Positions 31,851 to 32,412 of a stretch of 64,000 nt of DNA are shown one piece after another. Under the pieces are notes generated by a model that was not told the origin of the DNA, searched no databases, and saw only the letters and a program-made list of their open reading frames with translations. This DNA comes from Octopus vulgaris (lineage: Eukaryota): positions 41,788,001 through 41,852,000 of the forward strand of contig OX597836.1 of NCBI GenBank assembly GCA_951406725.2, read 5' to 3'. The translations under genes and the position numbers were made by a program. Each line of letters opens with the position of its first letter. Positions within the stretch are counted from its first letter, which is position 1.

Positions 31851-32192
31851 GTATGTATGTATGTATTCACACACACACATATATTTTCAGGCTAAGCATT
31901 ATATTTATGACTTAGATACACAAGTCAGAATTTTCGAGGCTTTCATCGAAATATATATATATATATATATATTAAAATTACTAAGTCTCTCTAAAGGAGA
32001 TTACGGCAGCGTTACTGTATATTAATAGTTATCGCCATACTAATATGGTAGTCTATAAATATAAGACTAAAGCTGTCGCTGATTAGCTCCAAGAGGCCAT
32101 CGCCTCTAGCTAGCTATTTGACACACGAACCTGCGTCCATTACAAACCTTCGAACAGGGGAGGTCAGCTGCTTCACCTTGCTAGTCAGACAT

Positions 32193-32233
32193 CTGCAGAC
32201 ATGTTTCAGGGTTGTTGCCCTTTATCAATGCAG
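32193..32233 (-). ncRNA. Minimal hammerhead ribozyme with U3-A8 core
   Basis: CUGCA-UUGAUAA-AGGG(CAACAA)CCCU-GAAA-CAUG-UC-UGCAG; all stems perfect. Confidence 0.85.
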
Positions 32234-32412
32234 CGTAGTCAGACCCGCAGGTGTCGCTACTGACCGTCTGTTCGAAGATTTTATTTACCTATACATATAT
32301 ATATATGTACGTGTATATATATATATATATATGTATATATATGTATATATATGTATATATATGTATATATATGTATATATATATACACACATATATATAT
32401 ATATATATACAC

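Follow-up and report, generated by a model that had tools for sequence, protein, structure and literature searches.

A likely non-LTR retrozyme family with U3-A8 hammerheads, inserted in (TA)n tracts of the Octopus vulgaris genome and probably copied by Penelope-like elements

The minus strand of the window (the whole 64-kb stretch of Octopus vulgaris DNA analysed, contig OX597836.1) carries at 31969–32291 a 5′-truncated copy of a family of non-coding tandem units of ∼362 bp. The copy comprises unit positions ∼269–365 followed by 1–∼229, and at less than one unit it includes a single hammerhead. The (TA)n target tract (31951–31968) borders its 3′ end and a TA-rich microsatellite (32292–32530) its truncated 5′ end. 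The initial annotation had placed an element of ∼310 bp between (TA)n tracts; the flanks are as it described, but the element is 323 bp long (32291–31969) and is not a full unit. E1, the first of the family's two fixed 3′ ends (∼179 nt past the predicted cut), is internal in this copy (32019–32030, minus strand), and it is followed by a “tail” of the type found in Penelope-like elements (PLEs) (31969–32018, minus strand) that leads toward the second fixed 3′ end (E2, at ∼238) and stops ∼9 nt before it.

The hammerhead ribozyme motif is of type I and lies at 32193–32233 (minus strand). Stem I pairs 32233–32229 with 32197–32193 (5 bp, CUGCA/UGCAG), and stem II with its loop 2 (32208–32221) has 4 bp (AGGG/CCCU, pair probability 0.97–1.0), a loop of 6 nt and GAA next to it. 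The sequence and the aligned copies both give the core as UUGAUAA (32222–32228), in which U3-A8 replaces C3-G8, and the conserved type I core is present (the 3:8 pair, U4, G5, A6, A9, G12, A13, A14, A15.1-U16.1, and H17). By hammerhead numbering, cleavage is predicted after GUC (32197–32198; C17 is C 32198). A strict form of the motif (stem I of at least 5 bp, a Watson-Crick 3:8 pair and a 6-nt palindromic helix III) is found twice in the 64-kb window and in none of 60 dinucleotide shuffles, so the U3-A8 hammerhead first noted here is real and beyond chance. Its stems had been called flawless, which does not hold for helix III: this is only the palindrome ACAUGU (32199–32204), which has an intramolecular pair probability of 0.0 when the unit is folded, and no stable helix III forms inside one copy. 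Since a 6-nt palindrome without intramolecular pairing can pair only between two copies, this ribozyme is predicted to belong to the dimer type. The Rfam hammerhead models gave no match at E ≤ 10 to the two family copies that were run against them. All 80 of the 80 aligned family copies have U3 and A8, and when the 3:8 positions were left free in the search pattern, 99 U3-A8 motifs and one C3-A8 motif were found among the 100 listed of 181 matches, with the same numbers among the 100 listed of 516 matches; the retrozyme family is uniformly U3-A8.

Stem I is extended by a rod-like hairpin (32148–32277, minus strand). The minimum free energy fold contains both of the enclosing pairings that had been proposed from the sequence, cttcgaacag/ctgttcgaag (32277–32268 with 32157–32148) and ggtcag/ctgacc, with pair probabilities of 0.94–1.0 at the base of the rod and z scores of −6.1 (166 nt) and −6.6 (321 nt) that no shuffled sequence equals. 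A further proposed pairing, acctgcg/cgcaggt, has a probability of 0.0 and is incompatible with the rod, and its seventh pair is available only in copies that lack one T. Folded as a circle, the unit is 58–67% paired at −113 to −134 kcal/mol, compared with −82 to −90 for shuffles.

Covariation of the stems across subfamilies was examined in 17 hand-picked representatives, which include two more divergent subfamilies. Both sides have changed in 11 of 43 pairs, a number that none of 500 shuffles reaches and that compares with one to three for slid controls, although such counts are inflated by relatedness and the tested structure was drawn from the same sequences. These changes affect three of six pairs in stem I and two of four in stem II. 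The middle pair of helix III is A-U, G-C or U-A in all 16 of 16 representatives. The stem covariation that the initial annotation expected of homologs is accordingly present across subfamilies; within the young subfamilies (35 of 80 copies) it is no better than in shuffles. Addition of a fourth subfamily (29 rows) yields two compensations at the subfamily level. A G-C to A-U compensation in subfamily III is only apparent and is limited to one copy. A tally of helix III from 171 loci, minus two matches outside the family, finds it palindromic in 121 of 127 family motifs (ACAUGU in 106, ACGCGU in 11 at seven loci, ACUAGU in two and ACGU in two) and non-palindromic in the other six. Helix III thus stays palindromic while its sequence changes.

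The family is dispersed through the 2.8-Gb genome. A similarity search gave 2482 candidates, the best 40 of which score 95–99%; a 31-mer from the 3′ part of the family has 628 exact genome copies, and the hammerhead pattern has 516 genome matches. Exact junctions between a family end and (TA) number 1308 for E2 and 339 for E1. When junction loci were inspected, 30 of 30 for E2 and 27 of 30 for E1 aligned to the family, and the other three E1 loci are a single place with short end fragments. At that place (L337–L339, G000:C1:222005354-222005499) three ∼20-bp E1 end fragments are repeated inside one (TA)n tract. Insertions of the family in (TA)n are well over a thousand. From cut site to cut site the unit measures 359–365 nt, with a GC content of 0.41–0.43 and one type I hammerhead. 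No similarity to reverse transcriptase (RT) or endonuclease was found in it, and the RT plus GIY-YIG frame that marks an autonomous PLE is absent. The search for tandem copies suggested earlier was productive, with tandem units ranging from dimers to a 5.5-mer. The family is split into several subfamilies; it is young, large and covarying. Sequencing runs that carry the labels of five organisms contain parts of it, which makes its presence in several related species probable. Contigs from runs guessed to be RNA cover the unit, and they reveal no ends, strand or circles.

The ends of the insertions carry most of the information on how they arose. A first set of 67 loci (70 fetched, three overlaps dropped; 114 arms) was chosen by the 3′ 31-mer, and in it the 3′ ends of arms pile up at two sites, ∼179 (E1) and ∼238 (E2) nt past the cut, 59 nt apart, both of which run into (TA)n. 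Because choice by the 31-mer favors E2, the count was redone on a second, overlapping set of 81 loci (139 arms) that covers the first 100 hammerhead-pattern matches. There, 53 arms end at E1, 52 at E2 and 34 elsewhere (105 of 139 at one of the two sites); solo insertions end at E1 in 12 cases, at E2 in 17 and elsewhere in six, and three loci are complex. The 47 head-to-head pairs comprise 24 with one E1 and one E2 arm, one with two E2 arms, none with two E1 arms, and 22 with at least one unclassed end. One of each end is thus present in 24 of the 25 pairs in which both ends are classed (p = 8e-7 under independent choice). Metazoan non-LTR retrozymes are further characterized by the lack of an LTR, PBS and PPT, and their target-site duplications, where they occur, are long; in the octopus family duplications are unreadable because the insertion ends sit in (TA)n. 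Partial tandems, an inverted 5′-truncated arm, a one-sided tail and a microsatellite target, the architecture of PLE insertions, are all found in the family. Published descriptions of the PLE signature include partial tandems, an inverted copy, a one-sided tail and (TA)n targets (PMC8557442; PMC3846280), and the purified lizard PLE is described as having two RT start sites, as cutting and extending both strands, and as a predicted dimer (PMC11167929). By these sequence features, it is likely that Penelope-type enzymes paste in the family, and PLEs are well supported as the class of carrier.

The 5′ ends and the tandem copies bear on the template. Of the 114 arms in the first set, 65 extend across the cut site and seven across two such sites; one single insertion has 5.5 units that differ from each other by 0–2 nt, with up to five passages through the cut site. 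This insertion (L346, G000:C1:8133400-8143300) belongs to a divergent subfamily with core UUGAAAA and helix III ACGCGU, has its 5′ end at the foot of the rod, and is a candidate source copy. Few 5′ ends fall at the cut, and many lie where the rod has its 3′ foot (20 of 114 at positions 30–49; in the second set, 15 of 139 at positions 30–44, with 5.7 expected), an accumulation that points to the rod, or its TTCGAA palindrome, as a place where cDNA synthesis stops or is redirected. Rare alleles are common to the units of one arm and to the two arms of a pair (∼21%, against 3% for random pairs), and so are haplotypes. An apparent 31% discordance between tandem units proved to be mostly an artefact of gap placement. 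A cut linear monomer was considered as the main template and set aside, because arms cross the cut site, a multi-unit copy exists, and 5′ ends are rare at the cut, with no pile-up there. A circle and an uncut homogeneous multimer each fit, and one of them is the likely template; later tandem expansion could be an added source of long copies.

We consider it quite probable, although not certain, that the locus, as a 5′-truncated copy of this ∼362-bp non-coding U3-A8 tandem-unit family in (TA)n, belongs to an animal non-LTR retrozyme and that a PLE RT-endonuclease copies this retrozyme in trans. In the proposed mechanism, multi-unit copies would be transcribed, two hammerheads would pair through helix III and then cut, and the monomers would be ligated into circles, in which a lone hammerhead should be unable to close helix III and so would stay uncut. 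A PLE protein, probably a dimer, would nick both strands of a (TA)n tract and prime cDNA at both target ends, at E1 from one and at E2 from the opposite one. Synthesis would proceed round the template, with frequent stalls where the rod has its 3′ foot; the two cDNAs would then be joined head-to-head, or one would be joined to the target. Being shorter than one unit, with a single hammerhead, the window copy is most likely a dead end. Shared 3′ sequence is frequent among non-autonomous PLE derivatives; here, outside the hammerhead core, the unit has no DNA similarity to the ends of six sampled autonomous PLE families, which counts against PLE carriage. The lack of an Rfam hammerhead match, and covariation in the young subfamilies that is no better than in shuffles, weigh against the retrozyme reading. 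Two reports also count against the mechanism: hammerhead mutants are described as having no effect on lizard PLE insertion (PMC11167929), and of nine Xenopus retrozyme dimers one is said to have cleaved in vitro and eight to have failed (bioRxiv 10.64898/2026.07.22.740005).

This genome is rich in autonomous PLEs that likewise target (TA)n and have two 3′ ends. Among 6136 GIY-YIG candidates 150 were scored, and six families were sampled. One very young family (L151–L162, e.g. G000:C16:20835000-20842500) has 12 copies with a median identity of 99.3%, an intact RT plus GIY-YIG frame of 781 amino acids, an upstream frame and a Cx4CxxC linker. A distance of 38 nt separates its two 3′ ends, which lie in (TA)n. 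Its hammerhead has the UUGAUAA core and ACAUGU palindrome of the main retrozyme subfamilies, with a very weak, AU-rich stem I. A second autonomous family has UUGAUAA with ACUAGU, as in one divergent retrozyme subfamily. Such matches are weak evidence for a particular carrier, because 16 such palindromes are possible and four are seen among the carriers. The six sampled families have no end sequence in common with the unit (the best similarity is equalled by 20 of 500 shuffles), and exact E1/E2 junction searches of the genome returned no other family. At two composite loci (L039:900-2400 and L070:900-2350) the retrozyme directly abuts PLE fragments, both coding and pseudo-LTR, that derive from two different families; these fragments are 89–93% like their nearest scored relatives, compared with 96–98% for the element. 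L039 also has an inverted duplicate of the junction, 100% identical, 270 bp beyond (TA)n. Template switching would explain these loci, but they are explained equally well if the element inserted into an older PLE copy and a deletion followed or accompanied the event, so they name no carrier. A more elaborate version of the mechanism, in which the circle would be copied by rolling-circle target-primed reverse transcription, a PLE dimer would obligately prime both target ends (E1 and E2), and the helix III palindrome would be an address that pairs the passenger with the hammerhead of its carrier, is in our judgment quite unlikely; the matches of the ACAUGU and ACUAGU subfamilies to two autonomous PLE families with the same palindromes and the UUGAUAA core are what the address would predict.

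Other hammerheads in the window put its 3:8 diversity in context. A relaxed scan gave seven candidates, several of them weak: C3-G8 at 10501 and 50540, U3-A8 at 32228, 35755 and 53600, and A3-U8 at 26766 and 52815. Three of the four Watson-Crick 3:8 combinations do therefore occur in the window, as had been claimed. The accompanying proposal of a diversified set of non-autonomous ribozyme retroelements stands in that the element is non-autonomous and its family has several subfamilies; it fails in that the family is uniformly U3-A8 (80 of 80) and the A3-U8 copy is the 3′ end of an autonomous PLE. That copy (hammerhead at 26736–26772, minus strand) belongs to another family and lies in the truncated 3′ pseudo-LTR of an autonomous PLE, longer copies of which also include, on the upstream side, RT and the end of a GIY-YIG frame. 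Because a truncated autonomous PLE accounts for the A3-U8 motif at 26766, the diversity in the window is among PLE families and their passengers and not within one non-autonomous set. Its family (window 26618–26880, minus strand; L101–L125, L146) has 1442 search candidates and an intact motif in 21 of 25 loci. A minimal C3-G8 hammerhead with an ACGU helix III lies in another repeat (10461–10506, minus strand). Elsewhere in the genome, other PLE families (L163, L170, L208, L218, L020) have C3-G8 with AGUACU, or U3-A8 with ACUAGU or ACCGGU. Core swaps are common among the PLEs of this genome, since families differ in both the 3:8 pair and the helix III palindrome. Decayed PLE RT/endonuclease remnants are present at 36229–37783 (plus strand) and 53100–53375 (minus strand), with the weak candidates at 35755, 52815 and 53600 nearby. 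The weak C3-G8 candidate at 50540 is 250 bp upstream of a U6 snRNA-like copy (50189–50288, minus strand; 79.9 bits), which has several substitutions and is probably a pseudogene.

Three other explanations deserve consideration. The element might be PLE-driven with an uncut linear multimer, transcribed from multi-unit copies, as its template, with no circle and with a hammerhead that cuts rarely or serves another step. Multi-unit copies do exist, the haplotypes shared by units of one arm are also expected from a homogeneous multimer, and unprocessed RNA is described as the main substrate of the lizard PLE in vitro (PMC11167929). On the other hand, a dimer-type ribozyme ought to cut a transcript that carries five hammerheads, the stems and the palindrome have been kept through compensatory change, and similar units of 350–390 nt in mussel and axolotl are reported to accumulate as circles (PMC7229834); we lean against the uncut multimer while giving it substantial weight. 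The unit might instead be the internally deleted pseudo-LTR of an autonomous PLE family outside the sample and not an independent retrozyme lineage. Xenopus retrozymes are described as homologous to PLE pseudo-LTRs (bioRxiv 10.64898/2026.07.22.740005), the UUGAUAA core is present in two autonomous families of this genome, one of which has ACAUGU too, and the PLE sampling leaves room for such a family at 150 scored candidates of 6136. Such an origin is unlikely, however, given that none of 60 exact E1/E2 junction loci reaches a PLE frame apart from the two composites described above, and that the six PLE families have no end similarity to the unit.

It is very improbable that the element is a LINE-mobilized SINE, or a repeat of satellite type, in which a hammerhead occurs by accident. 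LINEs also produce 5′ truncations and inversions, and hammerhead SINE-like repeats are known from Schistosoma (PMC6765202), but the family has neither poly(A) nor a single fixed 3′ end, its two ends are internal and are paired one of each, and its copies exceed one unit. No tRNA-like head was found in the 64-kb window, and the copies are dispersed and not in arrays. The end counts in the 81 loci largely refute this reading.

The insertion scars of the family directly support, at the level of the genome, the long-standing hypothesis that animal retrozymes are copied by enzymes of the Penelope type, and the strict one-of-each rule for the two ends constrains how inverted PLE insertions form. Both carrier and template (circle or multimer) are accessible in vitro, since this genome also has a PLE family that is intact and very young. 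The value of the locus lies in the footprint statistics and the covarying palindrome, and not in U3-A8 itself.

U3-A8, retrozymes and the link between retrozymes and PLEs have each been published already. U3-A8 is reported for natural hammerheads (PMC3088659), and the PLE pseudo-LTR hammerheads described by Cervera and de la Peña (2014, PMC4209133) include a U3-A8 variant in Schistosoma Cercyon elements, with ∼1,300 matches in S. mansoni; the same account describes most metazoan and PLE hammerheads as being of the dimer type. Those PLE motifs and the octopus motif share type I topology, a palindromic helix III, the dimer model and U3-A8, but the octopus hammerhead sits inside a long GC-rich rod in a protein-free unit; its stem II has 4 bp, and an internal loop lies above its stem I. 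A search of main texts found no U3-A8 retrozyme and no PLE footprints in retrozyme insertions. It likewise found no natural A3-U8 hammerhead, which Lunse et al. (2016/17; PLE hammerhead variants) or Przybilski and Hammann (2007; 3:8 exchanges) may report, and for cephalopod retrozymes or Octopus Penelope-like hammerheads it gave only PMC8557442. By the features compared, the octopus family would be a metazoan non-LTR retrozyme as described by Cervera and de la Peña (2020, PMC7229834), in whose account the non-coding unit is 150–450 bp (350–390 in mussel; 359–365 nt here) with one type I hammerhead, a short palindromic helix III, less than 50% GC and a high degree of self-pairing, and PLEs are proposed as the carriers. 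The retrozymes of that account do not have the U3-A8 core, form long arrays and are found as unit-length linear and circular RNA, whereas the octopus family, known here from genome sequence, consists mostly of dispersed insertions of 0.2–2.6 units that lie in (TA)n, end at two fixed sites and include inverted arms. Li, Clavereau and Pollet (bioRxiv 10.64898/2026.07.22.740005) present retrozymes as non-autonomous PLE sequences, the same carrier class as concluded here; their basis is co-occurrence and pseudo-LTR homology in vertebrates, whereas that for octopus is insertion footprints, and pseudo-LTR homology was not found. The insertions themselves resemble those described for PLEs (PMC8557442; PMC3846280; PMC11167929) in their partial tandems, inverted 5′-truncated copy, tail, (TA)n target and two starts or ends. 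The two RT start sites of the lizard PLE (PMC11167929) correspond to the octopus tail, which at 59 nt is longer than the 30–40 of the published PLEs. What the octopus family adds to the published PLE insertion structure is a quantified one-of-each rule (24 of 25), seen in a non-coding passenger.
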